A stretch of 64,000 bases of DNA from an uncultured Candidatus Saccharibacteria bacterium (GCA_964348395.1 CAYGCK010000002.1:12729-76728), one strand, 5' to 3'; positions 1-20,532 are shown, counted from the stretch's first letter. A program made the numbers and translations. Notes: generated by a model from the sequence alone, not told the origin.

Positions 1-498
1 GGTCTTAATGTCGATGCCGATTCTGATTTAATTAAAAATTTTGTTTTGGCTCGCCCACGCGACATTAACGTTAGTTGTGCTGTTGGAAAAGAGCATAAAA
101 AGCTCACTTTTTATGTTTTTAACGATCAAGCAATCAGTACTTTTGATAAGAGGTTAGCTGATGAACGCGCAAAGATCAAAGGTTACAACATCGTTGATCA
201 GCGAAAAATTCCCGTCCTCCCACTTAAGACGATATTAGGGGAATACATACCTGATCAGCAGGAAATAGATTTTATGAATGTAGATGTTGAAGGTAAGGAT
301 TTAGAAGTTCTGCAAACAAATGACTGGAGTAAATACAGACCCAGATTTTTGTTAGTGGAATGTCGGAAAGTAAATTTCTTAACTGATTTGAAAAAAGATC
401 CTATCGCTAGGCTTTTGAGTTCTCATAACTATGTCCCAGTTGCAAAATCTTATAACACTATCTTTTTTGCGGATAAAGATAACTATGAAAATAAATAA
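1..498 (+). CDS. FkbM-family SAM-dependent methyltransferase, C-terminal part (5' end lies outside window)
   Basis: Open frame runs from nt 1 with no stop. The C-terminal sequence (NFVLARPRDINVSCAVG...KLTFYVF...VDVEGKDLEVL) fits the FkbM methyltransferase pattern. Confidence 0.6.
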   Translation, partial: GLNVDADSDLIKNFVLARPRDINVSCAVGKEHKKLTFYVFNDQAISTFDKRLADERAKIKGYNIVDQRKIPVLPLKTILGEYIPDQQEIDFMNVDVEGKDLEVLQTNDWSKYRPRFLLVECRKVNFLTDLKKDPIARLLSSHNYVPVAKSYNTIFFADKDNYENK

Positions 499-2192: not shown

Positions 2193-2224
2193 ACCTAATG
2201 AAGTGTTTAGATTAAGGGGGGTTA

Positions 2225-2980: not shown

Positions 2981-2982
2981 TT

Positions 2983-4143: not shown

Positions 4144-4147
4144 ATTT

Positions 4148-5134: not shown

Positions 5135-5958
5135 TGGACAGTAAGATTAAAGTTTCAGTAGTAATAGGGTCGTATAATCGGCGGAGGTTTTTGGAACCCA
5201 CTATTGAAAGCGTCCGTTCTGAAATTGAGAATATACCTCACGAAATAATCGTTGTGGATGGAGGATCGGATGATGGGGCTTTAAGTTGGTTAGTTAAGCA
5301 GAAAGACATTGTTACCATCGTGCAGCACAACAGGGGTAGATGGAAAGGGAAACCTGTAGAGCGAAAATCGTGGGGATACTTTATGAACCTCGGTTTTAAA
5401 GCTGCAAAAGGGAAATATATCTGCATGCTAAGTGACGATTGTTTAGTGGTACCTGGAGCAATCAAAAACGAAATCAAAGTTTTTGAACGCGAACTTAAGA
5501 AAAAAAGGAAAATCGGAGCGGCTGCCTTCTATTGGCGCAATTGGCCTGAGCAAAAAGATTACTGGGTGGGTTTGACTTTCGGTAACACAGTTTTTGTGAA
5601 CCACGGTTTATATCTAAAGAAAGCTTTAGAGGAAATCGGTTACGCGGATGAAGATTCTTATCAGTTCTACCACGCCGATGGTGATATTTGTATGAGGATG
5701 CAAAAGGATGGTTACGCTTGTGTAGACTCGCCTGAATCTTTTATTGAACATTACTCTCATGCCAACCTGAAGGTAAGAAGGTCAAACTTGTCCGCTCAGA
5801 AGAAAGATTGGGAGGTTTATAAGGAGAGGTGGGGTAGGTTGGGCATTCCAAAGGAGGACTGGATTATTAGGAGGTTTGATGACCCAACAAAAACAGCCGA
5901 GAAATATTGGGGAGGATTAGGTTGGTCCCCCCGACTTAGGAGAGGATTAGGGAGATGA
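5125..5958 (+). CDS. glycosyltransferase family 2
   Basis: KVSVVIGSYNRRRFLEPTIESV...EIIVVDGGSDDG is the classic GT2 N-terminus. Start overlaps the upstream stop. Confidence 0.75.
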   Translation: MGMMDSKIKVSVVIGSYNRRRFLEPTIESVRSEIENIPHEIIVVDGGSDDGALSWLVKQKDIVTIVQHNRGRWKGKPVERKSWGYFMNLGFKAAKGKYICMLSDDCLVVPGAIKNEIKVFERELKKKRKIGAAAFYWRNWPEQKDYWVGLTFGNTVFVNHGLYLKKALEEIGYADEDSYQFYHADGDICMRMQKDGYACVDSPESFIEHYSHANLKVRRSNLSAQKKDWEVYKERWGRLGIPKEDWIIRRFDDPTKTAEKYWGGLGWSPRLRRGLGR

Positions 5959-6602
5959 AACTACATTTAGGTTGTGGGGAAATCTACTTGAAGAGTTACA
6001 CCAATATCGACTACCCACCCACAAAGCACACCGTGCAAACCAGGAGCATAGCGGACGAGTATCACGACATCACAAAGCTTCGCTATCCCAAAGAAAGTAT
6101 AGAGGAGGTAAGGCTGCACCACGTTTTCGAGCACTTTAACCGATCGGTGTATTTAGCACTTCTTGCTTCTTGGTGGAGCTGGTTAAAGGTGGGGGGAATT
6201 TTGCGTATAGAGGTTCCGGATTTCGATCGTACTGCCAAGGTTGTGCTTAGCCGTTTCTCCTCGGATAAAGCTAATAGGAAGGCGTTGCGGCATATTTTTG
6301 GGGCACAAGAGGCGCCGTGGGCGGTCCATTACGAGGGTTGGTCTGTGAAGCGTCTTTCCAGTTTGCTCTCGGAATTCGGGTTTAATGTAGATAAAGTCAG
6401 CAAAAACTCCTACAAGGGAACCTACAACGTCGAGGTTTTTGCAAGTAAGAAGAAAATCTCGATGGGGGAGAAGGATTTTGAGAGTGCCGCGAAGAGATTT
6501 CTTTCAGATTATTTAGTAGACGACTCATCAACCGAAAAACGTATGCTCGACACCTGGATCAAAACCTATCGTACGCAGATCAAAAAATCTTTTGCAAGAT
6601 GA
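5955..6602 (+). CDS. class I SAM-dependent methyltransferase
   Basis: MKLHLGCGEIYLKSYTNID is a Methyltransf_23-type N-terminus. ATGA overlap with the upstream gene. Confidence 0.65.
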   Translation: MKLHLGCGEIYLKSYTNIDYPPTKHTVQTRSIADEYHDITKLRYPKESIEEVRLHHVFEHFNRSVYLALLASWWSWLKVGGILRIEVPDFDRTAKVVLSRFSSDKANRKALRHIFGAQEAPWAVHYEGWSVKRLSSLLSEFGFNVDKVSKNSYKGTYNVEVFASKKKISMGEKDFESAAKRFLSDYLVDDSSTEKRMLDTWIKTYRTQIKKSFAR

Positions 6603-7498
6603 GAAAACAACCCTTAGTCTCGGTAATTATTCCGGCCTACAACGCCGCGCAATTTCTCCCGGAAACTATTGAAAGCGCGCTCAAGCAAACTTACAAAAAT
6701 ATTGAGGTTATCGTGGTCGACGACGGTTCAACCGATAACACCGAAGAGGTCGTGAAGAAATATCCAGTCAGGTATATCAAAATCGAACATTCTGGTGGCC
6801 CCGCAACTCCCCGAAACGAGGGGGTGCATAAAGCTAAGGGAGAACTAGTTGCGTTCCTCGACTCAGATGATGTCTGGTTATCCAAAAAGTTAGAGAAGCA
6901 AGTTGATTTTTTACGGAAAAGGGATTTTGACTTTGTATCTTGTGATGCCGTAATTATCGATGAGGATGGGAAGAAACTTCGCAAAAGCTATCTTGGTGGA
7001 AGGAAGATTCCAGAAGGAGAGGTTTTCTCTTCTCTCTACCAGGACAATTTCATTATCACTTCCGCTACCCTCGCAAGAAAGACCGTTCTTATAGATGCAG
7101 GTTTATTTGATTCGAGTGTGAATCTTGTCGGGGTTGAGGATTATGATCTCTGGCTCCGGGTCGCGGCAAAGTCTAGATTCGGTTTTCATCCAGGACAACT
7201 GGTTTTATATCGTGAGCGAAGCACAAGCCTTAGCGAAGTTGCTTCGACTGCCGACTTGGGAAAACTGCTTCGTGTTCTTCAGAAAAATTCCGGGTTGGCC
7301 AAACGACTGATGGGTCCGGCTTATAAAGCTAGGCTCTTTGAGTTATTCTGGCCACTTATGGTAGCGGGTGTGAGGGATAAGAGTTTACGGCGGGGTGTTA
7401 AGTACTTCCTGCTCTGTTTACGGTACTCGCCCGTTCTTACCGCAAATAGGATAATAAAGACAGTATCTAAAAGGTTTGTGGGTGAGAATAAGCAGTGA
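6599..7498 (+). CDS. glycosyltransferase family 2
   Basis: LVSVIIPAYNAAQFLPETIESALKQTYKNIEVIVVDDGSTDNT; DSDD (DxD) motif. Confidence 0.85.
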   Translation: MRKQPLVSVIIPAYNAAQFLPETIESALKQTYKNIEVIVVDDGSTDNTEEVVKKYPVRYIKIEHSGGPATPRNEGVHKAKGELVAFLDSDDVWLSKKLEKQVDFLRKRDFDFVSCDAVIIDEDGKKLRKSYLGGRKIPEGEVFSSLYQDNFIITSATLARKTVLIDAGLFDSSVNLVGVEDYDLWLRVAAKSRFGFHPGQLVLYRERSTSLSEVASTADLGKLLRVLQKNSGLAKRLMGPAYKARLFELFWPLMVAGVRDKSLRRGVKYFLLCLRYSPVLTANRIIKTVSKRFVGENKQ

Positions 7499-8682
7499 AA
7501 ATTTTACATACGGTTGAATTTTACGATCCTTCTGTTGGCGGAATGCAGGAGGTGGTCAAACAGCTTTCGGAGCGATTGGTAGAGCTGGGACACGACGTAA
7601 CAGTAGCTACCACAAAACTTCCGAACCGCAGATCCTCGGAGATTAACGGGGTCAAGATTGTCGAATTCGATATTTCTGGCAATTTGGTAAGGGGTCTTTC
7701 CGGCGAGATTGAAAAATATAAAAAGTTCTTGGTCGAGTCAAACTTTGGCGTAGTTGTAAACTTTGCCGCCCAGCAGTGGGCGACCGATATCGCTTTGGAT
7801 ATTCTTGGCGAGATTAAAGCAAAGAAGGTCTTCGTCCCCACGGGGTTTTCCGGCTTTTACCTTCCCGAATACCAAAGCTACTTTAGGAAGATGAAGGATC
7901 GGATTAAAAAGTACGATATGGACGTTTTCCTATCCAACGACTATCGCGATATCAATTTTGCCAGAGACGTTGGGGTGGACAGGAAGAAAATTACCATCAT
8001 TCCCAACGGAGCGAACGAAAAAGAGTTTTTGAGCAAGAGTAAGAGTAAGATTGACGTCCGGGAGCGGTTGGATACTCCAGAGGAGCACTTTCTCATCCTC
8101 CACGTCGGCTCCCACACCGGGGTAAAGGGTCACAAGGAGGCGATTGAAATCTTTTCCCGTGCCAAAATCAAAAACGCCACTTTTTTAATGGTCGGCAATA
8201 TTTTTGGTGGGGGCTGCAGCGTTTACTGTCCTGCCAAAGCCCTCCTTTTTAAATTTTCGCCCAGGCGCTTGCGTGACGGTAAACGTCTTGTGGTTACCCA
8301 GCTCAAGCGGGAGGAGACGGTCGCCGCTTACCAAGCCGCTGATCTTTTTCTGTTCCCTTCCAATATTGAGTGTTCGCCGATAGTTCTTTTTGAGGCGATG
8401 GCTTCCAAGACCCCTTTCCTAACCGCCGACGTGGGCAACTCGGCCGAGATTGTTGAATGGTCGGGCGGGGCCGGAATAGTTCTGCCAACCGACAAGAATA
8501 AAGAAGGTTTTGCCAGGGTGCGGATTCCCGAGTCGATAAAAATTCTAGAGGATATTTACCGTGACGAGAAGCGGTGGGAAAAGATGGCTAAGGATGGATT
8601 TTCCGCTTGGAAGAAGCGTTTTACGTGGGAAAAGATTGCGAAGGAGTATGAGAAGCTCTATGAGAGCTTGGCTAATAGTTAA
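7495..8682 (+). CDS. glycosyltransferase family 4
   Basis: MKILHTVEFYDPSVGGMQEVV N-terminus; C-terminal FPSNIECSPIVLFEAMASKTPFLTADVG is GT4-typical. Confidence 0.8.
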   Translation: MKILHTVEFYDPSVGGMQEVVKQLSERLVELGHDVTVATTKLPNRRSSEINGVKIVEFDISGNLVRGLSGEIEKYKKFLVESNFGVVVNFAAQQWATDIALDILGEIKAKKVFVPTGFSGFYLPEYQSYFRKMKDRIKKYDMDVFLSNDYRDINFARDVGVDRKKITIIPNGANEKEFLSKSKSKIDVRERLDTPEEHFLILHVGSHTGVKGHKEAIEIFSRAKIKNATFLMVGNIFGGGCSVYCPAKALLFKFSPRRLRDGKRLVVTQLKREETVAAYQAADLFLFPSNIECSPIVLFEAMASKTPFLTADVGNSAEIVEWSGGAGIVLPTDKNKEGFARVRIPESIKILEDIYRDEKRWEKMAKDGFSAWKKRFTWEKIAKEYEKLYESLANS

Positions 8683-8740: not shown

Positions 8741-9613
8741 ATGATTACCGTAGATATTTTTGGAGGTTTAGGGAACCAGATGTTCCAGTATGCACTAGGG
8801 CGGCACCTCTCCCTGAAAAATAAAGACTCGTTGACCCTTAGATATATAGATGTGGGAGCGTTTTCTAAAAGACCGTACGCTCTTGCGTGTTTTAGACTTG
8901 CGCCGAACACAGTAGTGAGGTCAGAGGTTGGAGGTTTGAGGTCAGAGTTTAGGAAAGTTTTGGAGAAGACTATTCCTTTATCTTTATATAGAGGAGAGGC
9001 GCTAATTCGGGAAAGGAGCTTTCGGTTTGACCCGAAGATTTTGAAGCTTAAAAGAGATGTTCACCTGCACGGGTATTGGCAGAGCGAAAAATATTTCAGA
9101 GACATTCGGGAAACGATTTTAGAGGATTTTACTTTTACGCCCCCGCTGAACAGCCGCAACCAAAAAATTCTTGAAAAGATCAAGAAAACAAATTCGGTGA
9201 GTGTGCATGTGCGGCGTGGGGATTATGTTATGGATCCTAAAACCCACGAGTTCCACGGCGTCTGCGGTCCCGATTATTACCAGAAAGCGGTTAAGGTTGT
9301 CTCCAAGAAGGTCGAGAACCCGACCTTTTACTTTTTCTCGGACGACATCAGGTGGGTCGAAAAGAACTTAAAAACCAAGGTCGAGAATACTTATGTGGAC
9401 TGGAACACCGGCGAGAAAAGTTTTGTGGATATGCAACTAATGAGTAGTTGCAAACATCACATTCTCGCCAACAGCAGCTTTAGCTGGTGGGGGGCTTGGT
9501 TAAACCGAAACAAAGATAAAATGGTTGTTGCGCCTAAACAATGGTTCCAAGACCCGAGTATGGATACACGGGATTTAATCCCGGAAGGATGGTTAACGGT
9601 GGATAGTAAGTAA
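8741..9613 (+). CDS. alpha-1,2-fucosyltransferase (GT11 family)
   Basis: N-terminal MITVDIFGGLGNQMFQYALGRHLS is the GT11 (FutC/WbsJ-type) motif I; HVRRGDY motif present. Confidence 0.8.
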   Translation: MITVDIFGGLGNQMFQYALGRHLSLKNKDSLTLRYIDVGAFSKRPYALACFRLAPNTVVRSEVGGLRSEFRKVLEKTIPLSLYRGEALIRERSFRFDPKILKLKRDVHLHGYWQSEKYFRDIRETILEDFTFTPPLNSRNQKILEKIKKTNSVSVHVRRGDYVMDPKTHEFHGVCGPDYYQKAVKVVSKKVENPTFYFFSDDIRWVEKNLKTKVENTYVDWNTGEKSFVDMQLMSSCKHHILANSSFSWWGAWLNRNKDKMVVAPKQWFQDPSMDTRDLIPEGWLTVDSK

Positions 9614-9633: not shown

Positions 9634-11832
9634 TTGGTGGAGAAACGAAAACAAAAATCTAAATTACGAATTACGAATAACGAATTACGACGGAACCCAA
9701 AAGTTTCGGTTGTGATGGCCACCTATAACGCGCGCGAGTATTTGCGAGAAGCTATCGAAAGCGTTTTAAACCAAACCTTTAAGGATTTTGAGTTTGTGAT
9801 TATCGACGACGGCTCGACCGACGATACTCGTGAAATCATCAAAAGCTATGAGGATCCAAGAATACGGCTCTACAAAAAGGACCACCGGGGGCTTATCGCC
9901 TCGTTAAACGAAGGGATTAAGCTCTCGCGGGGCGAGTATGTCGCCAGAATGGACGCTGACGACATCTCCCACCCACGCCGTTTCGAACTGCAGATTAAGT
10001 TTCTGGATTCTCACCCCGATTACGCCATGGTAGGAACCACAACCGAGATTACCGATACCGAAGGACGAACCTTCAAAATCTCTGCCGAGCCCTTAAGTCA
10101 TGAGGATATATTGAGGGGACTTTTAGTGCGGAATGTCTTTGCGCACGGCTCGATGATGGCGCGACGAGAAGTGCTTTTGGAGTTTGATGGCTACAGCCCG
10201 GAGGCGCTGCACGCCGAGGATTACGACCTGTGGGCCAGAATTATCCGCCTCTACAAAGGAGCCAACCTTCCGCAAGCGCTTTTTAGATGGCGCTCGAACC
10301 CAAAAGGGGTTACCGCCACCAAATTCAGGAGACAACAACAAACAGTTGAGTGGATAACCTCGAGAGAGTGGGGGATAGCCACGAGGGGAGGCAAGTTTCC
10401 CGAAGTTAGTCTGCGAGAGGTCTGGAAAAGGCGTCGGCAGCGGGATCCGGACGACGCTTTTTGGCATCTAAGGAAAGATGCGCTTTCCGCCATTTATGCG
10501 CGGCTGGGGAGAAGCTTTCTGGTTCACGGTAAACGCTTGCGCGCTATAAAGAGTGGTTTGGCTTCGATAATTTTGAACCCGATAGCGCTTAGGAATTACT
10601 TCTACCTTTTAATGGCTTTACTGCCGACGGGGGCTCTCGTCCCGACCGAAAATTTTCTGCGCCCTTTAAAAAGCAGGCTATCAGGAACTTGGAGAAGGGT
10701 CAGACCTCTTAGTCTGATCGAAATTCCCGAAGGAGGAATTCTTTTTGTTCGCCGCGGTATTTACCCGGGGTTTGACTTCCCCGAAGCCCACCAGTTTGCC
10801 GAGGAGCTGGTGAGGCAAGGCAAGACCGTGGGGGTCGTGTGTCTTAGCGCGGGAGGTGAACCTTCTTATGAGGTCATAAACGGGGTCAAGGTTTTCCGCT
10901 TGGCTCCCAACGCCAAGTTTTACCGCTGGATATACCAGTTTTTGTTGGTTTTTAATCTGTGGGGGAGAAAGTATGACATCATCCATGTCTTTTGGGGGAA
11001 GGGATTCTCGTTCCTGCCTCTCTTGGCCCCCTGGTCGGCAAAAAAGTGGGTGCTGGACGTTCGCTCGGGCCATATCGAGGAATCCTGGACCGCCAAGCTC
11101 ATCAACTTTATGATTGTGGTAGATTCTTACCTCTTTGACCACGTGATAACGCTGGATGAGAGGTTGCTCGAGCAGGTTTGGGGGAACTTTCCGGAGCCCG
11201 ACGAGGTCAGTTTTGTCCCCATGGGGGTCAATACCAAACTCTTTCGCTACCGCTACGACAGCAAACTTGCCGAAAGCTTAGGTTTGCGGCGGGGTGACCC
11301 AATATTCGTTTACCAGGGGACCCTGGATCCGGCGAGAAAGTTGGACAAGTTTTTGCGCGGTTTTGCCCAAGCCAAGAAGAAAATTGCTCGTCTCAAGCTC
11401 CTGATGGTGGGGGATGGAGGTGGTAGGGGGGAACTGGAGCGACTCACGCGGTGGCTGGGAATCGAGGATTTGGTTATTTTTGTGGGCCGCGTGCCGTTTG
11501 AGGAGGTCCCGCGTTATATCTCTCTGGGGGATTTTGGGGTCTCTTACGTCCCTCAAACCCCCGCTTTTACGGGCCAGCAGGTGACCAAGACCTTGGAATA
11601 TCTCGCTTGCGGCCGGCCGGTTTTGGCTACAAACCTACCCTTTAACAAGGAGGTTTTGAACGGTAATTCTGGGGTTTTGACCGACGACGATCCCCAATCC
11701 GTCGCTCGCGGTATTGAGAAGATTATTCGGCTTTGGCGGGACAAGAAGCTCAGCGTTGACCCCGATATCGTCAAAAGCTCGTCTTGGTCGAGCATCGTAG
11801 AAGAAAAGCTTCTTCCAGTTTACGGATTTTAG
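9634..11832 (+). CDS. bifunctional glycosyltransferase (N-terminal GT2 domain + C-terminal GT4 domain)
   Basis: AGGAGG RBS at 9623-9628, TTG/GTG start at 9634/9637. GT2 signature VSVVMATYNAREYL...FEFVIIDDGSTDDT. C-terminal GT4 domain (VYQGTLDPARKLDKF...LLMVGDGGGRGELE). Confidence 0.8.
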   Translation: MVEKRKQKSKLRITNNELRRNPKVSVVMATYNAREYLREAIESVLNQTFKDFEFVIIDDGSTDDTREIIKSYEDPRIRLYKKDHRGLIASLNEGIKLSRGEYVARMDADDISHPRRFELQIKFLDSHPDYAMVGTTTEITDTEGRTFKISAEPLSHEDILRGLLVRNVFAHGSMMARREVLLEFDGYSPEALHAEDYDLWARIIRLYKGANLPQALFRWRSNPKGVTATKFRRQQQTVEWITSREWGIATRGGKFPEVSLREVWKRRRQRDPDDAFWHLRKDALSAIYARLGRSFLVHGKRLRAIKSGLASIILNPIALRNYFYLLMALLPTGALVPTENFLRPLKSRLSGTWRRVRPLSLIEIPEGGILFVRRGIYPGFDFPEAHQFAEELVRQGKTVGVVCLSAGGEPSYEVINGVKVFRLAPNAKFYRWIYQFLLVFNLWGRKYDIIHVFWGKGFSFLPLLAPWSAKKWVLDVRSGHIEESWTAKLINFMIVVDSYLFDHVITLDERLLEQVWGNFPEPDEVSFVPMGVNTKLFRYRYDSKLAESLGLRRGDPIFVYQGTLDPARKLDKFLRGFAQAKKKIARLKLLMVGDGGGRGELERLTRWLGIEDLVIFVGRVPFEEVPRYISLGDFGVSYVPQTPAFTGQQVTKTLEYLACGRPVLATNLPFNKEVLNGNSGVLTDDDPQSVARGIEKIIRLWRDKKLSVDPDIVKSSSWSSIVEEKLLPVYGF
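9662..9689. repeat. heptanucleotide tandem repeat (AATTACG)x4, in the 5' coding leader of the GT2-GT4 gene
   Basis: aattacg aattacg aataacg aattacg at codons 10-19. It lies between the start codon and the first GT2 beta-strand. Confidence 0.8.
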
Positions 11833-11851
11833 ATGCTTTAAAATAAGGGCG

Positions 11852-14509
11852 ATGACCAAGACACGGTTGGAAAAACTAGCGGTTTTCTTTTTCCTAATCT
11901 TTTTTATTCTCTCTCCCTTGACTTACAAGCTGCAGATTAGAGGTGGTGTTTATCAGGAGGGGATTTACGTGGAGCCGTTGATAATCTTCCTCCTCTTAAG
12001 CGTGGCGCTTTTTATCTGGGGGATTTGGAAAGGAGGAAGGAGAAAGTTTTGGGTACGTCTCAAAGAGTTTCTTATCCCGCATCCCGTCGCTTTCCTTTTT
12101 TACCTTCTGATAGCGGTTCTTTTGGCCTCCTACCTTTATGGCATCGCTCTTACAGGTTTAACCGCGTTGGGGGATTTCTTGCGCCTCGGCAAGTACGGTT
12201 TGTACTTTTTATCCTTTCCTCTAGCGGTAAAAACCATTCGGGTTTTGGGCGATGTGTGGATCAGAAGAATTTTGATGTTTTTGGTTTTGGCAGGGTTTGC
12301 GGTATCGGTGGTATCTCTCGGGCGCATCTATGGTTACGTTTCGGGAGGAGGGGTTATAGATTTTTGGACTTACTCTCCCTTATCAAGGAGCGTGGGGTTT
12401 TTAGGACAATATTTGGACTTGAGAGACTTTAGCGTAGGGCAAATCCAAAAAGCCGCTCACGCCACCTTTGGTCTTTATCTTTCGGTGGTTTTGGCGGTGG
12501 CTTTTGCCCTCTTTTCCCAAGCTCGGAGCTTCTCCAAGAAGTGGTTTGCCTACCTTTTGGGGGTCGGTACAATCTTCGCTGCGCTTTTGTATACCCTTTC
12601 CCGCGGGGCGGTCGTGACCGGCGACTTGGTGCTTTTGGCGGGGATTGTATGGCTTCTTTTGAAGAAGCGTTTTTGGGCGGTTTTGGTTTTGACAGTTTTT
12701 CTGTTCTTGGAATCGTCCGTTCTTTTACAGTTAAACCCCGAGATCTATCAAAAATTCGCCTCGACCTTCCCCGGCGCGCAAAAGGCGGCGGCGGCGCTCA
12801 TTAAGGTCTCGGCTCCTGTGGGACAGGGGATAATCGGCACGTTTGAGCGTGTTTTTGGTGTATACGAGCCGGATTCGAGAGTACCGACACCTCAGAATGT
12901 TGTGGAAGCCCCGGAAGTTACCGCGTACAGCAACCTTTCTGTGGATAAGTCGCTAAGCGATAGAGTGGTTACGTGGGGGGAGACGCTAAATCTTTTGACC
13001 TCCAAACCGCAGTTTTTCCTTTTTGGAGTGGGGTACAGCATAGATAATCTGCGTCACTTTACCGACGGGGCAGTGGTGTTCCCTCATAGTTTATTCCTGG
13101 ACCAATGGGTTCGCGGGGGACTTTTGGCCCTCGGGGTAGTTCTTGTTATTTGGTTAGTTCTTTTTGTAAAGACCATTCAATTTTGGTCCTCCAAAAACGA
13201 TCTTGTCCGCGCCGTTGGGGTCACCCTCTTTGCCTTTTTGGTGGGGTGGTTTTTGGATAACGCCTTCTCCGGCGAGCAATTTTTCTCGGATGCGCCGATG
13301 CTTGTGTTTTGGGGAACTTTAGGGCTCGTGACAGCGTTGTCAGAGATCAGAGGTCAGAGATCAGAGGTCAGGAAGGTGCTCATAGCGCTTACGAGCTCTA
13401 AGCTGGGAGGGGCGCCGCAGGTCGCTTATGACTTGCTCTCGCAAGTCAGTAAGAGAAAGAGTAAGAGTGGAGAGGGGAAATTTGAATTTATTGTCGCTGC
13501 ACCGAAGGGTGGGGTTTTCAATAAAAAGTTTAGGGAGTTGGGGTACAAGGTTTATCCGGTCCCGCTTAACCGGATTGGTATTGGAGGGTTTATCGGGCTT
13601 CTCAAGGTCGCCCTTAAGGAAAAGGTCGATCTAATAAACTCCCACGGCAAGGGCGCAGGTATCTACGCCCGAAAGGTTGGTGTGCTTTTGGGTATCCCTG
13701 TGGTTCAGACTTTCCACGGTCTGCACTACGATTACAAAAACCCTTTTGCGCGGTTTTTCTACCTCTGGCTGGAACGCTTCCTCACCCCCTTTATGAGATT
13801 TGTAATAAATGTTTCTCCCGGCCAGGAAAAGGAAGGTATCAGATTGAGGATTTTCCCCAAGAGTAAGTCGCGGTTGGTCGTAAACGGAATAGACGTGGGG
13901 AAGTTTGACAGGGTTAGGGTGAACAAGGACAGCCTTCGAAAGAAATTGGGACTCGCGCCGCGGGATTTCGCAGTCGCCGTAGTAGCGCGGTTTGATAGGG
14001 TTAAGGGCCATATACGCCTCATAAACCATATTCCCGACCTTATTAAAAGCATTCCGAACTTAAAAGTCGTTTTTGTCGGGGGTGGGGAAGAGCAAGTAAG
14101 AGCAAGAGCTAGAGCAAGAGAGTTAGGAGTTCAGGATTCAGTGGTTTTTTTGGGAGAGAGAAGTGACGTTCCCAAGATCCTCAAATCCGCAGACGCTCTG
14201 ATTTTGCCATCTTTTCATGAGGGGATGCCTCTTGCGGTGCTTGAGGCCTACGCGTGCGAGCTCCCCGTTATCGGTGCGGACGTGGTTGGAGTGGCGGATG
14301 TAGTCGAGGATGGAAGGACCGGATATTTGGTTTCTTTTGACGAGGGGTCAACGGAGCTCAAGCGCGCGCTCGGTAAGCTCTACAAGAGCAAGACGCTTAG
14401 GGAAAAGCTTGGCAAGGCGGGGAGACGCATGGTGGAGGAGAAGTTTTCCCTAGACCGGTTTGTTCGAGGTACACTTAAGGTGTACAAGGAGGCACTTCTT
14501 AGGTCATGA
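11852..14509 (+). CDS. fusion protein: O-antigen ligase/polymerase-like (Wzy_C) polytopic membrane domain + C-terminal GT4 glycosyltransferase
   Basis: About 10 predicted TM helices. Wzy_C-like LYTLSRGAVV and GVGYSIDNL...FPHSLFLDQWVRGGLLALG motifs. A GT4 domain follows from about KVLIALTSSKLGGAPQVAYDL, with the C-terminal ILPSFHEGMPLAVLEAYACELPVIGADVVG. Confidence 0.75.
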   Translation: MTKTRLEKLAVFFFLIFFILSPLTYKLQIRGGVYQEGIYVEPLIIFLLLSVALFIWGIWKGGRRKFWVRLKEFLIPHPVAFLFYLLIAVLLASYLYGIALTGLTALGDFLRLGKYGLYFLSFPLAVKTIRVLGDVWIRRILMFLVLAGFAVSVVSLGRIYGYVSGGGVIDFWTYSPLSRSVGFLGQYLDLRDFSVGQIQKAAHATFGLYLSVVLAVAFALFSQARSFSKKWFAYLLGVGTIFAALLYTLSRGAVVTGDLVLLAGIVWLLLKKRFWAVLVLTVFLFLESSVLLQLNPEIYQKFASTFPGAQKAAAALIKVSAPVGQGIIGTFERVFGVYEPDSRVPTPQNVVEAPEVTAYSNLSVDKSLSDRVVTWGETLNLLTSKPQFFLFGVGYSIDNLRHFTDGAVVFPHSLFLDQWVRGGLLALGVVLVIWLVLFVKTIQFWSSKNDLVRAVGVTLFAFLVGWFLDNAFSGEQFFSDAPMLVFWGTLGLVTALSEIRGQRSEVRKVLIALTSSKLGGAPQVAYDLLSQVSKRKSKSGEGKFEFIVAAPKGGVFNKKFRELGYKVYPVPLNRIGIGGFIGLLKVALKEKVDLINSHGKGAGIYARKVGVLLGIPVVQTFHGLHYDYKNPFARFFYLWLERFLTPFMRFVINVSPGQEKEGIRLRIFPKSKSRLVVNGIDVGKFDRVRVNKDSLRKKLGLAPRDFAVAVVARFDRVKGHIRLINHIPDLIKSIPNLKVVFVGGGEEQVRARARARELGVQDSVVFLGERSDVPKILKSADALILPSFHEGMPLAVLEAYACELPVIGADVVGVADVVEDGRTGYLVSFDEGSTELKRALGKLYKSKTLREKLGKAGRRMVEEKFSLDRFVRGTLKVYKEALLRS
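13341..13372. repeat. heptanucleotide tandem repeat (CAGAGAT/CAGAGGT)x4 at the Wzy_C/GT4 domain junction
   Basis: cagagat cagaggt cagagat cagaggt cagg, encoding SEIRGQRSEVR between the last TM region and the GT4 N-terminus. Confidence 0.8.
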
Positions 14510-15660
14510 AGAAAAGGAAACTCCGCATTGGAATAGACGCTCGGCTTTGGGGTCCCTACGGGCGGGGTGTGGGCCGCTATGTGGAGAATTTGGTCGAAAA
14601 CCTTGAGGAGGTGGATAAGAAAAACGAGTACGTCATTTTCCTGCGCGAGCAGAATTTCGACCTCTATAACCCCAGAGGTAAAAACTTTAGCAAGGTTTTG
14701 GCCGACGTTCCTTGGTACGGTGTTGCGGAACAGACGGCTCTGCCCAAAATATTCTTTGCCCAAAACCTCGATGTCCTGCACGTCCCACACTTTAACGTTC
14801 CGGTTTTCTATAGCGGGAATATGGTGGTAACCATTCACGATTTGACTATGCTTAGGTTCGGAGGGCGGGAGGCGACGACCCGCGCCTTGCCGCTCTATCT
14901 CTTGAAGCGTCTGGGGCTCTGGGCGGTTTTATCGACCGCCTTGAGGCGCGCGAGCGCGATTGTGACGCCCTCCCAGTTTGTCAAAGACGATGTGGTTCGG
15001 ACTTTTCGTATAACTCCTAAAAAAGTTTTCGCTACTTATGAGGCCGGGGTTTTGGGAGGGAAGGGGCGAACGCGCGAGGAGAGGGAGGTCGAGGACGTTT
15101 TGGGAAGGCACGAGATTACAAAACCTTATATCCTTTACGTCGGTGGGTTTTATCCTCACAAAAACATCGCCCGGCTCCTTGAGGCGGTAAAAATCTTAAA
15201 CGAAAAGTTGAAGCAAAAAACGCAACTCGTCTTGGTGGGGGCCGAGGACGTCTTCCGAGCTAGGGTGGCCAGGCAGGCCCTTGAGGTTGGGGCGCTAAAG
15301 TATATATCTTTTACCGGTTACGTGACGGATGATGACTTGGTGGACCTTTATAAAAACGCCGAAGCTTACGTTCAGCCGTCCTTATCGGAAGGGTTTGGTC
15401 TGCCCTCGCTTGAGGCAATGGCGCTCGGGGTGCCTGTTGTCGAGTCCAACTCCTCCTGCCTTCCGGAGATAGCCGGCGAGGCGGCTTTATATTTTGACCC
15501 ATATGACGCGGGAGATATAGCCGAGAAGCTGGGTAAGGTCTTAAGCAGCAAGTCGCTTAGGCAGAAGTTGGTTAAAAAAGGACTCAAGAGGTCGAAGGAG
15601 TTTTCCTGGGAAGAAATGGCGCGCGAGACCGTAGAAGTTTACAAGAAAGTAGGGAAATGA
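14506..15660 (+). CDS. glycosyltransferase family 4
   Basis: MKKRKLRIGIDARLWGPYGRGVGRYVENL (GT4 RfaB-like N-terminus); C-terminal SLSEGFGLPSLEAMALGVPVV. Confidence 0.85.
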   Translation: MKKRKLRIGIDARLWGPYGRGVGRYVENLVENLEEVDKKNEYVIFLREQNFDLYNPRGKNFSKVLADVPWYGVAEQTALPKIFFAQNLDVLHVPHFNVPVFYSGNMVVTIHDLTMLRFGGREATTRALPLYLLKRLGLWAVLSTALRRASAIVTPSQFVKDDVVRTFRITPKKVFATYEAGVLGGKGRTREEREVEDVLGRHEITKPYILYVGGFYPHKNIARLLEAVKILNEKLKQKTQLVLVGAEDVFRARVARQALEVGALKYISFTGYVTDDDLVDLYKNAEAYVQPSLSEGFGLPSLEAMALGVPVVESNSSCLPEIAGEAALYFDPYDAGDIAEKLGKVLSSKSLRQKLVKKGLKRSKEFSWEEMARETVEVYKKVGK

Positions 15661-16583
15661 AGGCGCTTGTAACGGGGGGAGCGGGATTTATAGGAAGCCA
15701 CTTGGTAGACGCGCTGTGTAAACGAGGAGATGAGGTTTTGGTGGTCGACGACCTTTCAAACGGCCGCGCCGAAAACGTCAACCCCAACGCAAAGCTTCTG
15801 ACCGAGGATATCGGCGAGGGTGTGGTCTCGAAACTTATCGACGAGGAGAAACCCGAGGTTATTTTCCACTTAGCCGCCCATATAGACGTTCGCCGCTCGG
15901 TCGAGGAGCCCTCCTTGGACGCCAAGGCCAATATCTTGGGGAGCCTAAACCTCATTAAAGCCGCGGCGGAGGCGGGGATTAAAAAATTCGTTTTCTCCTC
16001 AACCGGCGGGGCGATTTACGGAAACGCAACCGAGATCCCGACACCCGAGACCTACCCCCCTAAACCCCTTTCCCCGTATGGAATAGCCAAGCTCGCAGTC
16101 GAAGGGTACATCAAGCTTTGGGAGGGCCTTTTTGGGATCAAGTACACGGCTCTTCGCTACTCCAACGTCTTTGGGCCTAGGCAGGGGGAGGTGGGAGAGG
16201 CGGGGGTGACCGCGATTTTTGCCAGGAAGCTTCTCTCTGGAGGAAACGTTACGATATTTGGGGATGGCGAGCAGACCCGCGATTACGTCTACGTTTCGGA
16301 TGTGGTCGAGGCGAATCTTCTGGCCGCCGGCTCGGCGGATTCGGGGATTTTCAACATCTCAACCGGTATTGAGACGAGCGTAAACACCGTTTTTGATAAA
16401 CTGCTCAAGCTTTCCGGTAAAAAGGTTAAACACTCCTACCTTCCCTTAAACCGCGGGGAGGTCTTGCGAAGCGCTTTGGATTACTCGTTGGCCCGCGAAA
16501 AACTGGGTTGGGAGCCGAAAGTTCCTTTTGAAGAGGGGATTGAGAGGACATTCGATTATTTTCTAGCTCAGCAAAGACAGTAA
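15657..16583 (+). CDS. NAD-dependent epimerase/dehydratase (UDP-hexose 4-epimerase, GalE-like)
   Basis: MKALVTGGAGFIGSHLVDAL Rossmann motif; YxxxK (YGIAKLAVE); 308 aa. Confidence 0.85.
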   Translation: MKALVTGGAGFIGSHLVDALCKRGDEVLVVDDLSNGRAENVNPNAKLLTEDIGEGVVSKLIDEEKPEVIFHLAAHIDVRRSVEEPSLDAKANILGSLNLIKAAAEAGIKKFVFSSTGGAIYGNATEIPTPETYPPKPLSPYGIAKLAVEGYIKLWEGLFGIKYTALRYSNVFGPRQGEVGEAGVTAIFARKLLSGGNVTIFGDGEQTRDYVYVSDVVEANLLAAGSADSGIFNISTGIETSVNTVFDKLLKLSGKKVKHSYLPLNRGEVLRSALDYSLAREKLGWEPKVPFEEGIERTFDYFLAQQRQ

Positions 16584-16584
16584 A

Positions 16585-17706
16585 ATGAGTGTTGCTATAC
16601 CTAAAAACTTGAAGAATTTAAAAGTTGCTTTAGTCCACGAGGATTTGTCGGTTCCTCACGAAGGGGCGGCCAAGGTATTTCTGGCGATCGCCGAACTTTT
16701 CCCCGACGCTTCGATTTTTATCCCCATGGCAACCACGAGGTGGTTAAAACGACTTTCGGCGTGGAAGGTAACCACCTCTTTTATGCAGCGTTTTCCTGCT
16801 AAAAGGAGACTGCAGCGGGCCTTTACTCCTTTTTATCCTCTGGCTTTTGAGTCCTTTGATCTTTCTGATTACGATTTGGTAATCTCCTCCTCGTCCCGCT
16901 TCGCTCACGGCGTTGTTACAAAGCCCGAAACCAAGCACGTCTGCTACATGCACTCGCCGGGTCGTATGTTTTGGGAGCCTCACCAATATTTTGGGAAGGA
17001 TTCAAACCTCCGGAAACTTTTATCGCCGGCACTTTCTTACTTTCGCCTTTGGGACGGGGCTGCGTCGGCGCGCGTAGATCGTTTTGTAGCCAACTCTAAA
17101 AACACAGCACGAAGGATAAAAAAATATTATGGGCGGGAAGCATCCATTGTGCACCCATTCGCGGATCTGGAGCGGTTTGCTCCTAAACCAGAGAGCGGGG
17201 AGCAGAGAACGGAGAGTAGTTACTACCTTGTGGTGACAAGGCTGGCTCCTTGGAAGAGGGTGGATGTGGCTATTGAGGCGGCGAAAAAGGTTGGGGTGCG
17301 GGTGAAGATTGTGGGTTCCGGTCCCGACCGAAAGCGGCTTGAAGGGATAAAGGGAGCGAGCGCAAAGATTTTGGGGAGCGTGGGAGATGGGGAATTAGCG
17401 CGACTTTACCAAAACTGCCGAGCGTTCATTATGACCCAGGAGGAGGATTTTGGAATAACCGCACTTGAAGCCCAAGCCGCGGGCTGTCCGGTGGTGGCGT
17501 ATGGTGCGGGGGGAGCGCTTGAAACCATTAGCGAGGGGAAAACCGGGGAGTTTTTCTATCCTCAAACCGGTGTGGCGCTCGCTAAAGCTCTCAAAAGCTT
17601 CGATCCCAAAAAATACAAACTCGAAGATTGCCGAGCCAACGCCCAGCGCTTTAGCAAAAAGAGGTTTCAAGAAAACCTGCTGAAAGAAATAAGCAAGGAT
17701 TTTTAA
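16585..17706 (+). CDS. glycosyltransferase family 4
   Basis: C-terminal MTQEEDFGITALEAQAAGCPVVAYGAGGALE GT4 signature. Confidence 0.8.
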   Translation: MSVAIPKNLKNLKVALVHEDLSVPHEGAAKVFLAIAELFPDASIFIPMATTRWLKRLSAWKVTTSFMQRFPAKRRLQRAFTPFYPLAFESFDLSDYDLVISSSSRFAHGVVTKPETKHVCYMHSPGRMFWEPHQYFGKDSNLRKLLSPALSYFRLWDGAASARVDRFVANSKNTARRIKKYYGREASIVHPFADLERFAPKPESGEQRTESSYYLVVTRLAPWKRVDVAIEAAKKVGVRVKIVGSGPDRKRLEGIKGASAKILGSVGDGELARLYQNCRAFIMTQEEDFGITALEAQAAGCPVVAYGAGGALETISEGKTGEFFYPQTGVALAKALKSFDPKKYKLEDCRANAQRFSKKRFQENLLKEISKDF

Positions 17707-17746: not shown

Positions 17747-18433
17747 TTGCCTGCCATGGATACGTCACTTATGAAAGATTTCATCTACGCCGCTTTAAAG
17801 CGGTTTCTTGATGTAGCTGGTTCGGTCGTCGGAATCTTCGTTTTTTCCATTCCCATGGTCGTTGTATATATCCTCAACAAGCGCGAAGCTCCGGGACCGG
17901 CGGTTTTTGTGCAAACGCGGGTGGGGTTGGGAGGCAAAAATTTTAAGATGTATAAATTTGCCTCTATGATCACTCGCACGGAAGAGCAGGAGCGGAAGTT
18001 TTTGAAAGAACTAGCCCGAGAAAGGCCAAAACTTTGGGAGCGCTACAAGAAAAACAATTTCAAGACCTTGGAGGACGACCCCCGCTTGACCGCATTTGGC
18101 AAGTTCTTGAGGAAATCGTCGCTCGATGAGCTGCCTCAATTTTTTAACGTTTTTAAAGGCGAGATGTCCATCGTCGGTCCGCGCGCCTACAAACCAGACG
18201 AGCTTAAAAGTTACGCCGCCGAACATCCAGAATTTAAGGAAGATATAGAGAACTTGCTCACGGTTAAGCCGGGAATAACGGGTCCGTGGCAGGTTTCCGG
18301 CCGTTCCAACCTCCCATTATCAGAGCGCCTGAAGTTAGACTCCTCCTACGCCGAAAGAAAATCTTTCCTCGACGATATGAAAATAATTTTCAAGACCCCC
18401 GTGGCCGTTTTGCGAAGAGACGGCGCCTATTAG
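17747..18433 (+). CDS. monotopic phosphoglycosyl transferase (PglC/WbaP C-domain type; Bac_transf family), priming enzyme
   Basis: KRFLDVAGSVVGIFVFSIP re-entrant helix. PGPAVFVQTRVGLGGKNFKMYKFASM and DPRLTAFGKFLRKSSLDELPQFFNVFKGEMSIVGPRA are Bac_transf hallmarks. Confidence 0.85.
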   Translation: MPAMDTSLMKDFIYAALKRFLDVAGSVVGIFVFSIPMVVVYILNKREAPGPAVFVQTRVGLGGKNFKMYKFASMITRTEEQERKFLKELARERPKLWERYKKNNFKTLEDDPRLTAFGKFLRKSSLDELPQFFNVFKGEMSIVGPRAYKPDELKSYAAEHPEFKEDIENLLTVKPGITGPWQVSGRSNLPLSERLKLDSSYAERKSFLDDMKIIFKTPVAVLRRDGAY

Positions 18434-18472
18434 TTAAGAGTCCAATTTTCTGTATTCTTATATTGTTATCCG

Positions 18473-20515
18473 ATGGTTGAATTTTTGCGTCCGGAACACA
18501 CAAGTGATCAGAGAACAGAAGGTACAGAACAGCCCGCGGTGGGTGGAGAGGTTAAGAAGCAGAGTAGAATCCGAAGAATCCTCCGGTTCCCACTAAAATC
18601 CAAAATTACCGATTTCATAGGTAGAAGTCGCCGGCGTAAGGTTTTGTTTCTGTCCCTTTTGGCTATGCCTTTTGTACTTCTTTTGCTTGTAGTCGTTATA
18701 CCGGCCGCTACTGTCTACTCCCAAGTCAGATCTTTACCGGCGCAGGTGGGGGTTATCAGGGGTTCGGTAGAGGAGAGGGATTTGGATAAAGCCGAGGCTG
18801 CTTTGGGGGAATTGGACTCCTCGCTGTCCCGGTTTTCCAGAACCTACAACTATCTTTCCTACCTTAAATTCATTCCGTTTTTGGGTAGATACTACTCTGA
18901 TGGGGTCCATCTCTTAAACGCCGCACGCCTGGCGGTTGATTCCGGGGAGATGGTGGTGGCATCTCTCAAGCCGTACCAGGAGATTTTGGGGTTGAAGGAA
19001 GGTTTTGGGGACCAGATTACCGTGGAGCAGCGTCTCACGAATCTGTTGGGAACACTGCCGAGCTTAAGTGGGAGTTTGGATGAGGTTTGGGGGAATCTCC
19101 TTCTTATCGAGGCGGAGCTTGAGGAGGTCGATCCCACCCGCTACCCGGAGGAGATCAGGGGAGTGAAGGTTAGATTTTGGATTGAGGAGGCGCGGAGCAT
19201 TTTGGCAGAGACGGGGCCGCTGCTTGAGGAGGGGAGGACGATTTTGGAGCTCGCGCCACAGCTTTTGGGCTCACCCACCCCTCGTACCTATCTGGTTCTT
19301 TTCCAAAACGACGCCGAGATTCGAGCAACCGGTGGGTTTATTACCGGGCTTTCTATGATAACTCTTGAAGGAGGCAAGGTTGTGGAGAACGAGTTTAAAA
19401 GCGGGGCCTACGTCGCCAGAACCACGCCTTACATCCCGCCCCCGGCGCCTTTGGGGAAGTACTTGCGAGTCGGTACTTGGCATTTCCAGGACGCAAACTA
19501 CTACCCAGATTTTCCCGCCTCGGCCCGCGAGGTTCTTAGGGTTTGGGAGCTTTCGCGCCTGCCCGCCCCCGCCGGGGTGGTATCCATTAACACCCAGGTG
19601 GCCTCTAACATTCTTGAGATCACGGGACCCATACACATCCCGGGCTATGACTTGGACTTATCAAAACTATCTTTCTTGCCCGAGTCCTGCCAGGCCGGCG
19701 GACGAGAGTTCACCACAGAAAACTTGGTTTGCCGCTTGGAGTATTATGTGGAGCGCAATCCCCAGGAGGGGACGGCTACGGAGGAGCGCAAACTCATCCT
19801 GGGTAAGCTCTCCGACGCGGTCATTCAGAAAATCACCTCGGCTACTTCGGAGATATGGCCGCGGCTTGTGGATATGGTTTTTGAGAGCTTGGAGCAGAAG
19901 AATATCATGATTTATGCTCTCGAGGCGCGCGAGCAGGAACTTATTAAGTCTTTGGGTTGGGCGGGGGAGATGCGGGATTTTGAGGGCGACTACCTTCACA
20001 TCTCCGACAGCAACTTTGGCGGCAAAAAAACCGATCTCTTCTTGGAAGAAGAGGTGGAGCAGATTCTAGAGCGCAGGGAGGACGGGGTTTGGCAAAAAAC
20101 GGTCAAAATCAGCTACTTCAACCCCCAACCCCTCGACAACTGGCTATCCTCGGTCTACAAAGATTTTGTTCGGCTTTACGTCCCGTCTGGCTCTCGATTG
20201 TTGTCGGTCGAGGGCGGGGCTCAAATCTGGACAGCACCCGATAAGTGGGCCACCGGTATAGAAAATCCCGCGGGTTGGCAGGAGTTTGGGAAGACCGTTT
20301 TTGGCGCTTACTTCACTCTTTGGCCCCAACAAGAGCACGCGATAACCTTCGTCTATGAGCTGCCCCAGGGCGCGGTTGGGGGTGAGACGTATCGGCTCTT
20401 GATGCAGAAGCAATCCGGTACAAATATAGGTCTTGTAGAAGTAAAAATCGGTGGTAATATAGAGGCGTTCGAGTTAAAAACCGATTTCGAAGTTTCGTCA
20501 ACCGTTGAACAATGA
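18473..20515 (+). CDS. hypothetical membrane-anchored extracytoplasmic protein (N-terminal basic tail + single TM; possibly DUF4012-like)
   Basis: 680 aa. Basic N-terminus, a TM helix (VLFLSLLAMPFVLLLLVVVI), then a large non-repetitive ectodomain. The family assignment is an unverified recollection. Confidence 0.5.
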   Translation: MVEFLRPEHTSDQRTEGTEQPAVGGEVKKQSRIRRILRFPLKSKITDFIGRSRRRKVLFLSLLAMPFVLLLLVVVIPAATVYSQVRSLPAQVGVIRGSVEERDLDKAEAALGELDSSLSRFSRTYNYLSYLKFIPFLGRYYSDGVHLLNAARLAVDSGEMVVASLKPYQEILGLKEGFGDQITVEQRLTNLLGTLPSLSGSLDEVWGNLLLIEAELEEVDPTRYPEEIRGVKVRFWIEEARSILAETGPLLEEGRTILELAPQLLGSPTPRTYLVLFQNDAEIRATGGFITGLSMITLEGGKVVENEFKSGAYVARTTPYIPPPAPLGKYLRVGTWHFQDANYYPDFPASAREVLRVWELSRLPAPAGVVSINTQVASNILEITGPIHIPGYDLDLSKLSFLPESCQAGGREFTTENLVCRLEYYVERNPQEGTATEERKLILGKLSDAVIQKITSATSEIWPRLVDMVFESLEQKNIMIYALEAREQELIKSLGWAGEMRDFEGDYLHISDSNFGGKKTDLFLEEEVEQILERREDGVWQKTVKISYFNPQPLDNWLSSVYKDFVRLYVPSGSRLLSVEGGAQIWTAPDKWATGIENPAGWQEFGKTVFGAYFTLWPQQEHAITFVYELPQGAVGGETYRLLMQKQSGTNIGLVEVKIGGNIEAFELKTDFEVSSTVEQ

Positions 20516-20532
20516 CCACTCAACCTGCCTAA

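Follow-up and report, generated by a model that had tools for sequence, protein, structure and literature searches.

A Wzy_C-type membrane domain fused to a GT4 glycosyltransferase in a conserved surface-glycan locus of Saccharibacteria and related lineages

We analyzed a stretch of 64,000 nucleotides (hereafter the window; GCA_964348395.1 CAYGCK010000002.1:12729-76728) whose contig is labelled Candidatus Saccharibacteria at NCBI and which comes from a metagenome-assembled genome (MAG) from the Candidate Phyla Radiation (CPR; also called Patescibacteria). An initial annotation, made from the sequence alone, had called a fusion of two enzymes at 11852-14509: a Wzy_C (O-antigen ligase- or polymerase-like) membrane domain followed by a family 4 glycosyltransferase (GT4). 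Indeed, a single open reading frame (ORF) of 885 codons fills exactly this interval on the plus strand, from ATG to stop; its stop codon overlaps the start of the next gene at 14506, and the co-oriented genes are tightly packed. The identical NCBI entry (P0001 in our numbering of related proteins; related loci are numbered with an L) is titled 'glycosyltransferase [Candidatus Saccharibacteria bacterium]'. The product combines a Wzy_C-type membrane domain with a cytoplasmic GT4 domain, as seen in its architecture, fold, topology and conserved residues, in the pattern of fusion and fission among relatives, and in synteny (Table 1).

Two enzymes in one frame could reflect an artefact of assembly or gene calling, or a decaying gene, in which case the halves would truly be separate genes or the product would be non-functional. 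Three relatives do keep the halves as separate genes, a slippage-prone 7-nt repeat lies at the junction, and in a near-identical contig (L017, JABAOC010007224.1) the gene has gained 5 nt by duplication and lost 75 nt. This reading is nevertheless scarcely credible. The same 885-residue product is called, letter for letter, on three long contigs (50-200 kb) from two samples; the frame is unbroken across the junction, outside the three split lineages, in all 20 of the Joint Genome Institute (JGI) metagenome loci that reach it and in five loci from species-representative genomes; and about 150 positions are invariant, including catalytic-type motifs of both halves. L017, for its part, is a short contig with N-gaps. 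It is the counterpart of window ~11060-15850; the duplication (CGTTT, in tandem) lies in the Wzy_C part, the deletion is in frame and takes out window 13649-13725, where the GT4 has its conserved HGKGAG...HG region, and there is also an N-gap. L017 is either a disrupted variant in the population or a poor assembly.

The C-terminal half is a GT4 enzyme, just as first annotated. Pfam finds PF00534 (130.9 bits, residues 692-859) and PF13439 (52.5 bits, residues 544-682), both above their cut-offs; the model of this half has a GT-B fold, with Foldseek TM-scores of 0.80-0.85 to HepE, PglA and BshA (0.80 for PglA); and the EX7E motif, which defines GT4, is invariant. These properties place it in CAZy family GT4. 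When the domain was compared with solved proteins using phmmer, BshA (1e-20) and GlgM were among the best matches and PglA followed at 1e-18; BshA, GlgM, PimB' and WaaG all score similarly. The longest match among solved proteins is to PglA (residues 40-375), at about 21% identity. PglA of Campylobacter glycosylates a monosaccharide linked to undecaprenyl diphosphate (Und-PP), namely Und-PP-linked diacetylbacillosamine (Und-PP-diNAcBac).

The N-terminal half is assigned to Wzy_C (PF04932) by a less direct route. PF04932 is not listed in a Pfam scan of the full-length protein at E <= 0.01, and residues 1-520 alone score 27.4 bits (E 3.3e-6), below the curated gathering cut-off of 31.7. The match spans residues 239-429, which is 191 residues over 144 profile positions, and an alignment of 24 full-length homologues traces the low score to an insertion of about 45 residues in the outside loop. 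A precomputed PF04932 match exists for 20 of the 24 other full-length homologues (P0002-P0025; 42-55% identical), and relatives score well above the cut-off (P0029, 59 bits; P0045, 48.6; P0034, 46.6; P0043, 44.7), P0029 and P0034 being stand-alone proteins. Homology to the PF04932 superfamily is thus found through close relatives; an NCBIfam scan of the N-terminal domain gave no meaningful match.

Because matches to the GT4 swamped the fold search with the full-length protein, we modeled residues 1-505 separately (predicted local distance difference test score, pLDDT, 78.7; predicted template modeling score, pTM, 0.81) and compared this model with two structure libraries. Foldseek matched it to 7tpg_B (E 2.2e-6), revealing a WaaL-type (GT-C_B) fold; the closest solved structure is WaaL of Cupriavidus metallidurans (PDB 7TPG/7TPJ), at an identity of 14-15%. 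The homologues and the fold together rescue the sub-threshold score and support the Wzy_C assignment. The initial claim about this domain therefore stands on its relatives and its fold, while the protein's own profile score, one of the grounds on which the claim was to be judged, goes halfway against it.

Hydropathy and the positive-inside rule predict about 12 transmembrane (TM) helices, with the N-terminus inside, a 122-residue loop (residues 293-414) outside and the C-terminus inside, in agreement with the helices of the AlphaFold model. The architecture is polytopic, with a big extracytoplasmic loop ahead of the last three helices. An outward loop carrying an R...H motif had been expected from the initial annotation; R371 and H412 lie within or at the end of this loop. 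Given this topology, the GT4 domain is placed in the cytoplasm, where nucleotide sugars are, which bears out another of the early proposals.

The residues that are invariant in the fusion family include R251 (in LSRGA), D365, S367, R371 and W375 in a helix of the loop, GVGY at 392-395, H412-S-x-F-L-D417, R421-G-G, and a signature peculiar to the family, D469-N-x2-SGEQFFSDAPM-x2-FWG. We used two profiles, one of the fusion family (A2) and one of a wider alignment of 30 sequences with identity down to 17% (A3). In A3, R371 is invariant and S250-R251, W375, N470 and G474 are nearly so; position 412 is His in 13 sequences and Glu in the other 17. Conserved Arg residues (R251, R371) and a His (H412, which is His or Glu in the wider family) are thus predicted to face the outer leaflet. 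Searched against solved proteins, A3 returned a single match, 9rmk_A, an 'Oligosaccharyltransferase' of 610 residues (E 1.1e-4, 24.3 bits); A2 and the single N-terminal sequence found nothing useful among solved structures, and A2 did not reach 9rmk_A. Neither the single sequence nor either profile reached the WaaL structures 7TPG/7TPJ at E <= 10, so that sequence similarity to WaaL was not found. In PglS, PglL and WaaL, the equivalent Arg residues are proposed to bind the diphosphate of Und-PP and the His is proposed to be catalytic; a PglS H324A mutant is inactive (PMC12800693).

The same fusion is present in at least 12 distinct related CPR loci. In three lineages the halves are split, and every time they are adjacent and in the same order, so that homologues do occur as two genes, a check that the initial annotation had suggested. 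In L003/L004 the split is in frame, reading ...KERN-TGA-TTT-ATG-IEKKN... (L003 5740-5748); in L015 the two genes overlap by 26 nt in different frames across A7/A6 runs (L015 7385-7410); and in L016 they overlap by 8 nt (L016 2312-2319). These three forms suggest independent fission events or, in L015, homopolymer sequencing errors. The downstream gene of L003 shares 55% identity with residues 502-880 of the window protein but 27% with the next GT4 of the window, and is thus the true orthologue of the fused GT4. Given that the domains are fused in most loci and adjacent where split, the Wzy_C and GT4 activities are linked both by fusion and by conserved adjacency.

A profile search with the N-terminal domain against 1.84 billion cluster representatives found 175 proteins at E <= 1e-3, 23 of them at E <= 1e-10. 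Scanning one genome per species (185,579 species) for the signature pattern confirmed six loci, all in MAGs labelled Saccharibacteria, Parcubacteria group, WWE3, Sungbacteria or Patescibacteria. Across MAGs labelled Saccharibacteria, Parcubacteria, WWE3 and Sungbacteria the membrane domain is 38-59% identical and retains the long invariant motif, while the genes upstream differ. Remoter fusions of a Wzy_C domain to a GT4 (P0043, 894 residues; P0086/P0175, 800-886 residues) resemble the window protein in domain order and size but match the N-terminal profile at only E 3.6e-19 and 5e-6, respectively; a homologue search with P0086 returned one relative. These distant fusions probably arose independently, so that the domain combination has seemingly formed more than once. 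P0175 (886 residues; L013 10001-14159) is part of a Wzx-type cluster: a PMT-family GT-C gene follows it directly, and a pyruvyl transferase is encoded upstream. In the literature we found no account of a natural Wzy_C-glycosyltransferase fusion, of 9RMK, or of an O-antigen ligase in Patescibacteria.

The fusion gene opens a conserved module, in the order fusion, GT4b, epimerase, GT4c, Bac_transf, DUF4012, that follows a variable run of methyltransferase and glycosyltransferase genes. On its 3' side lie recO, a class II aminoacyl-tRNA synthetase gene and the dcw cluster (mraW, PBP, mraY, ftsW, murG, ftsQAZ). L005, L006, L007, L020, L022, L032 and L037 keep both the module and its place: in these loci, as in window 17747-24266, the module always adjoins recO, the class II aminoacyl-tRNA synthetase gene and mraZ-mraW-PBP of the dcw cluster. 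This address is a conserved chromosomal site of a surface-glycan locus over several CPR lineages, and the pattern of the locus is O-antigen-like, in that the attachment core stays constant and a serotype-like part can be replaced. DUF4012 proteins are tied to capsular and exopolysaccharide clusters and enriched in CPR and Gram-positives (PMC6744442); we considered the one here as an obvious glycosylation acceptor and rejected it, as it has no Ser/Thr-rich segment. A scan of the cluster for promoters and terminators gave counts at chance level.

To the left of the window, as read from L001 (contig WVZC01000267.1), the cluster continues with an ABC2_membrane (Wzm-like) gene, an ABC_tran+Wzt_C (Wzt-like) gene and two GDP-sugar dehydratase/epimerase genes; L001 coordinates for the upstream-continuation genes are 162-1730, 4798-5622 and 5619-6860. 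L001 also encodes, upstream of the window, a 522-residue sulfatase-like membrane protein with a weak match to the sulfatase fold, perhaps LtaS/EptA-like. A Wzt-type ABC exporter is found upstream in window/L001, L005, L007 (= L019) and L018, and a Wzx-like MOP protein (~490-550 residues, 9-12 predicted TM helices) in L015, L020, L024, L030, L031 and L033. Among the genes of the present cluster, read in the window and over ~8 kb upstream of it, there is no MOP flippase and no match to the Wzz or polysaccharide co-polymerase (PCP) families, nor is there a lipid A gene among the ORFs of the window. The setting, a CPR MAG, therefore appears free of lipopolysaccharide (LPS) as far as these genes go, which agrees with the early view of the locus; CPR cells have been described as monoderm with an S-layer (PMC6146748).

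Two further observations concern the right half of the window. A lone MOP-family (Polysacc_synt) gene lies at 44110-45345 (+), 30 kb from the glycan cluster, and back to back with it a gene at 45350-46108 (-) encodes a 251-residue protein with bacterial Ig-like and Glucodextran_B domains, possibly a surface protein. A PolX-like ORF at 47349-49214 (HHH, DNA_pol_B_thumb and PHP domains) is listed with a TTG start that overlaps a tRNA-Gly gene on the same strand (47339-47412), so its true start must lie further downstream.

The initial annotation had described the domain junction as built from heptad repeats, and this proved right for the DNA but not for the protein. Heptamers GTCAGAG and ATCAGAG alternate at 13339-13371, twice over and ending in GTCAG, so that the array can be read as a 7-nt unit repeated 4.6 times or as a perfect 14-mer repeated 2.4 times; in 100 shuffles of the window, arrays numbered one on average, whatever their period, and none had period 7. 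The array codes for a short linker stretch of ~10 residues. In the model, the TM12 helix (480-503) passes into strand beta-1 of the GT4 (506-513) with essentially no linker (~2 residues). This helix-to-strand transition rules out protein heptads or a coiled coil, and the repeat unit is 7 nt, not 7 residues.

Such arrays recur. In 368 kb of sequence (the window plus non-redundant related loci), TRF found 51 short arrays, 12 of them with period 7 and 13 with period 14, compared to 0 and 1.2 per replicate in triplet-shuffled controls. They often consist of two alternating heptamers, total ~30-34 nt and lie in coding regions at tolerant sites such as linkers, variable loops and N-terminal tails; with the period-7 arrays, the same protein positions are hit in different lineages with different repeat units. 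The 14-mer in gatB, AAACCGGAAACTGG, recurs in a Parcubacteria MAG (L009 2044-2081), there in a loop of the fused GT4, and both copies encode ...ETGNRKL...; chance, a favoured slippage motif or a small insertion could each account for this. We asked whether the 7-nt repeat might switch glycan genes by phase variation and found this unsupported: one array is in gatB, an essential gene, the near-identical contig L017 has the same copy number, and no copy-number variants were found. We know of no mechanism for a 7-nt period.

Table 1 Features of the fusion gene, its locus and the heptanucleotide arrays (window coordinates unless a locus is named).
Feature	Coordinates	Strand	Remarks
Fusion ORF, Wzy_C/WaaL-fold membrane domain + GT4	11852..14509	+	ATG-to-stop, 885 residues
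N-terminal domain, residues 1-505	11852..13366	+	~12 TM helices, WaaL/PglL (GT-C_B) fold
Large extracytoplasmic loop, residues 293-414, TM9-TM10	12728..13093	+	Holds D365, S367, R371, W375, GVGY 392-395, H412; from invariant columns and topology
Lineage-specific loop insertion, residues ~316-364, predicted disordered	12797..12943	+	Gap in most aligned homologues; pLDDT < 50
S250-R251 'SR' motif, end of TM7, candidate pyrophosphate-binding Arg	12599..12604	+	29/30 in wide family; aligns to NSR of 9rmk_A
R371, invariant Arg of loop helix (R-x3-W)	12962..12964	+	30/30 in A3; aligns to PRQIEW of 9rmk_A
H412, candidate catalytic His (PHSLFLD motif)	13085..13087	+	Invariant in fusion family; aligns to His of 'THSHN' in 9rmk_A
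SGEQFFSDAPM, family signature between TM11 and TM12, predicted outside	13268..13300	+	Invariant; served as search pattern
Heptanucleotide tandem repeat, (GTCAGAGATCAGAG) x2.4	13339..13371	+	Encodes linker SEIRGQRSEVR, TM12-GT4
C-terminal GT4 (GT-B, retaining), residues 506-885, cytoplasmic	13367..14506	+	Pfam, NCBIfam, Foldseek, phmmer
EX7E motif (E790...E798) of retaining GT4	14219..14245	+	E790, G791, P793, E798 invariant
Variable glycan-cluster part: FkbM and S-adenosylmethionine (SAM) methyltransferase, GT2 and GT4 genes	46..8682	+
GT11 (fucosyltransferase family) gene	8741..9613	+
GT2+GT4 two-domain glycosyltransferase, 732 residues, upstream neighbour	9634..11832	+	Adjoins fusion gene also in L003, L006, L007, L018
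GT4b, conserved module	14506..15660	+	Start overlaps fusion stop; 57-70% identity in most related loci, 43% in L015
NAD-dependent epimerase/dehydratase	15657..16583	+
GT4c, conserved module	16585..17706	+
Bac_transf phosphoglycosyl transferase, sole initiating enzyme found in locus	17747..18433	+	PF02397 E 1.1e-57; kept in related loci
DUF4012 protein, end of conserved module	18473..20515	+	One N-terminal TM helix + large outside domain
Array loci	9662-9690, 13339-13371, 17189-17216, 49939-49973, 52801-52834; also L005, L007, L009, L010, L012, L015, L020, L022, L033
Array at Wzy_C/GT4 junction	Window, L010, L020, L022
Array in variable loop ~30 residues into GT4	L012, L033, L020, L022
Array in GT4c inter-domain linker	Window 17189, L005, L022
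Array near 5' end of GT2+GT4 gene	9662-9690		AATTACG x4.1, codons ~10-19
Array in gatB codons 3-13	52801-52834

Taken together, we favor a reading in which the N-terminal domain works at the membrane's outer face as an en-bloc transferase of the WaaL/PglL type and the fused GT4 builds a conserved reducing-end primer or adaptor, with a surface protein as the leading acceptor; we give it a probability of about 0.5. The ligase activity, the roles of the residues, the substrate of the GT4 and the acceptor are all things we infer. The N-terminal domain would move a finished Und-PP-linked glycan at the outer face onto its final acceptor, as a ligase or O-oligosaccharyltransferase. In this view the diphosphate would be bound by R251 and R371, with H412 activating the acceptor; the likeliest acceptor is a protein of the cell surface, for example a pilin or an S-layer protein, although an envelope lipid or polymer is possible. 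The GT4, held right under the membrane by its ~2-residue connection to TM12, would work with Bac_transf, GT4b and GT4c on the lipid-linked reducing-end primer or adaptor. The enzymes of the variable region would then extend and methylate the chain, and export would use Wzm/Wzt in this genome and a Wzx-like flippase in relatives.

Several lines of reasoning lead us to a ligase or O-oligosaccharyltransferase. S250-R251, R371 and H412 align to motifs of 9rmk_A, the first pair being nearly invariant and R371 invariant in the wider family, and the predicted topology puts the loop outside. Orthologues of the fusion lie in both Wzm/Wzt and Wzx clusters, and only ligation is common to the two routes. 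The ABC-dependent pathway needs a ligase and has no polymerase step, as set out for the S-layer glycan of Geobacillus stearothermophilus (PMC2943079). A ligase is also favored because the domain is conserved (38-59%) within a constant module while the region upstream turns over; Wzy polymerases are typically very divergent and sited in the variable region. The GT4 is read as a primer or adaptor enzyme because it lies in the conserved module beside the sole initiating transferase and because PglA is its longest solved match. The initial annotation had proposed a glycan polymerase or a protein O-glycosylation enzyme: context argues for the ligase/O-oligosaccharyltransferase side of this claim, and the exporter here, the occurrence of orthologues in both cluster types and the conservation of the domain disfavor the polymerase side.

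A number of points weigh against the reading that we favor. The protein's own PF04932 score is sub-threshold, as described above; the match to 9rmk_A is weak and was reached solely with the broadened profile; and more than half of the wider family has a residue other than His at the proposed catalytic site. The fold match cannot tell a ligase from a polymerase, because the two libraries yielded no solved Wzy_C-family structure other than WaaL. For the GT4, the role in primer or adaptor synthesis is drawn from synteny and from non-specific similarity. In the Wzx-type loci, the fusion protein is the sole polytopic protein besides Wzx and could equally be a Wzy polymerase, and the lone MOP gene of the window makes a Wzx route possible even here.

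Some of these points would fit a Wzy-type polymerase fused to a glycosyltransferase of the repeat unit, which would join flipped Und-PP-linked repeat units outside and leave attachment of the polymer to another enzyme. Wzy polymerases themselves belong to the Wzy_C family; about half of the related loci have a Wzx-like flippase encoded a few genes upstream, and there no further polytopic protein offers itself as the polymerase; the distant fusion P0175 belongs to a classical Wzx-type cluster with a pyruvyl transferase; and DUF4012, with its single membrane pass and large outside domain, could be a co-polymerase. We consider this rather unlikely, however. A Wzy polymerase goes with Wzx, usually together with Wzz, in its cluster; Wzx is present in some relatives' loci, but the window cluster, L005, L007 and L018 have Wzm/Wzt instead, so that there is no role for a polymerase in these, and yet the protein keeps all of its invariant residues. 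An identity of 38-59% over phylum-level CPR lineages, the placement of the gene in the conserved rather than the variable module, and the lack of a Wzz/PCP match in any cluster gene point the same way.

Alternatively, the protein could make an LPS-like lipoglycan: the GT4 would glycosylate a membrane lipid inside the cell and, once this had been flipped, the ligase domain would attach the Und-PP-linked glycan to it, as WaaL does on lipid A-core. WaaL, which has the closest solved fold, naturally acts on a glycolipid acceptor; some GT4 enzymes make glycolipids, the fold matches include PimA and PimB', and NCBIfam models for alpha-monoglucosyl-diacylglycerol synthase (1.7e-12) and glucosaminyl-phosphatidylglycerol synthase (1.5e-14) match the GT4. 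Fusing the maker of the acceptor to the ligase would also account for the finding that, wherever a locus covers the junction, this GT4 is either fused or adjacent. Even so, the similarities to glycolipid synthases are generic and weaker than those to BshA and PglA, and the GT4 shares its module with an undecaprenyl phosphate-dependent initiator, an arrangement that agrees no less well with donor synthesis. No glycolipid flippase is evident, and the only solved protein that the membrane domain reaches by sequence is a protein oligosaccharyltransferase rather than WaaL. A lipid acceptor made in this way thus seems distinctly improbable.

A broader and more speculative proposal, which we regard as unlikely, is that CPR carry by the division cluster a serotype-variable, O-antigen-like locus whose core ligase is fused to a GT4 that makes an adaptor or a lipid acceptor, with a linker that, like others in these genomes, is built and resized by heptanucleotide slippage. 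If true, one polypeptide would tie the first committed steps of the undecaprenyl-phosphate cycle to its last step; and with a glycolipid as acceptor, a monoderm cell would be making an LPS-like lipoglycan.

The fusion is a rare, CPR-restricted ligase-GT4 variant of known machinery; each half falls in a well-known enzyme class, and no concept is overturned. WaaL is likewise a polytopic helix bundle (~12 TM helices in our protein) whose large loop lies outside and which has conserved Arg and His residues, and both proteins are expected to accept Und-PP-linked glycans from either export route; but WaaL lacks the ~380-residue cytoplasmic GT4, and the fusion family has the SGEQFFSDAPM motif of its own. 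The acceptor should also differ from that of WaaL, because the CPR cell is monoderm and shows no sign of lipid A-core. PglL, PilO/TfpO, PglS and the predicted WsaB/WsfB have the Wzy_C domain in common with the fusion, whose SR, R-x3-W and His motifs align, in the weak match of the widened profile, to the solved 9rmk_A. The fusion is nevertheless remote from the PglL-type protein O-oligosaccharyltransferases and has the GT4 in place of a TPR or Wzy_C_2 C-terminal domain. To our knowledge, no enzyme of the PglL, PilO, PglS or WsaB type is fused to a glycosyltransferase.

The slg cluster of G. stearothermophilus, also a monoderm, is made of parts like those here: Wzm/Wzt, a WbaP-like initiator (WsaP), methyltransferases and a Wzy_C transferase (PMC2943079). 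Its glycan has a 2-O-methyl cap, and its Wzy_C protein, WsaB, is a predicted, undemonstrated O-oligosaccharyltransferase (PMC2943079). With Wzy polymerases the fusion shares the Pfam family and presumably the fold, and some members of its family lie beside a Wzx-like flippase; it differs from them in its conservation across lineages, its place in the constant part of the locus, the ABC exporter and the absence of a Wzz-type partner among the cluster genes. The fused GT4 has the GT-B fold and EX7E motif in common with PglA and with the adaptor mannosyltransferases WbdB/WbdC, but whereas enzymes of the PglA type are peripheral membrane proteins, it is covalently tethered to a membrane ligase.

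CPR/Patescibacteria make up a large and mostly uncultured part of bacterial diversity and live attached to hosts, so that host recognition and phage sensitivity are probably decided by the chemistry of their surface; of how their envelopes are decorated, hardly anything is known. The gene described here marks a conserved glycan-attachment module in several CPR lineages, although it is annotated just as "glycosyltransferase" and its ligase half is missed by Pfam in this member. As a compact enzyme with two activities, the fusion may be of use in glyco-engineering hosts, and the combination of a constant core with a swappable ABC- or Wzx-type part offers a handle for predicting the diversity of CPR surface glycans.

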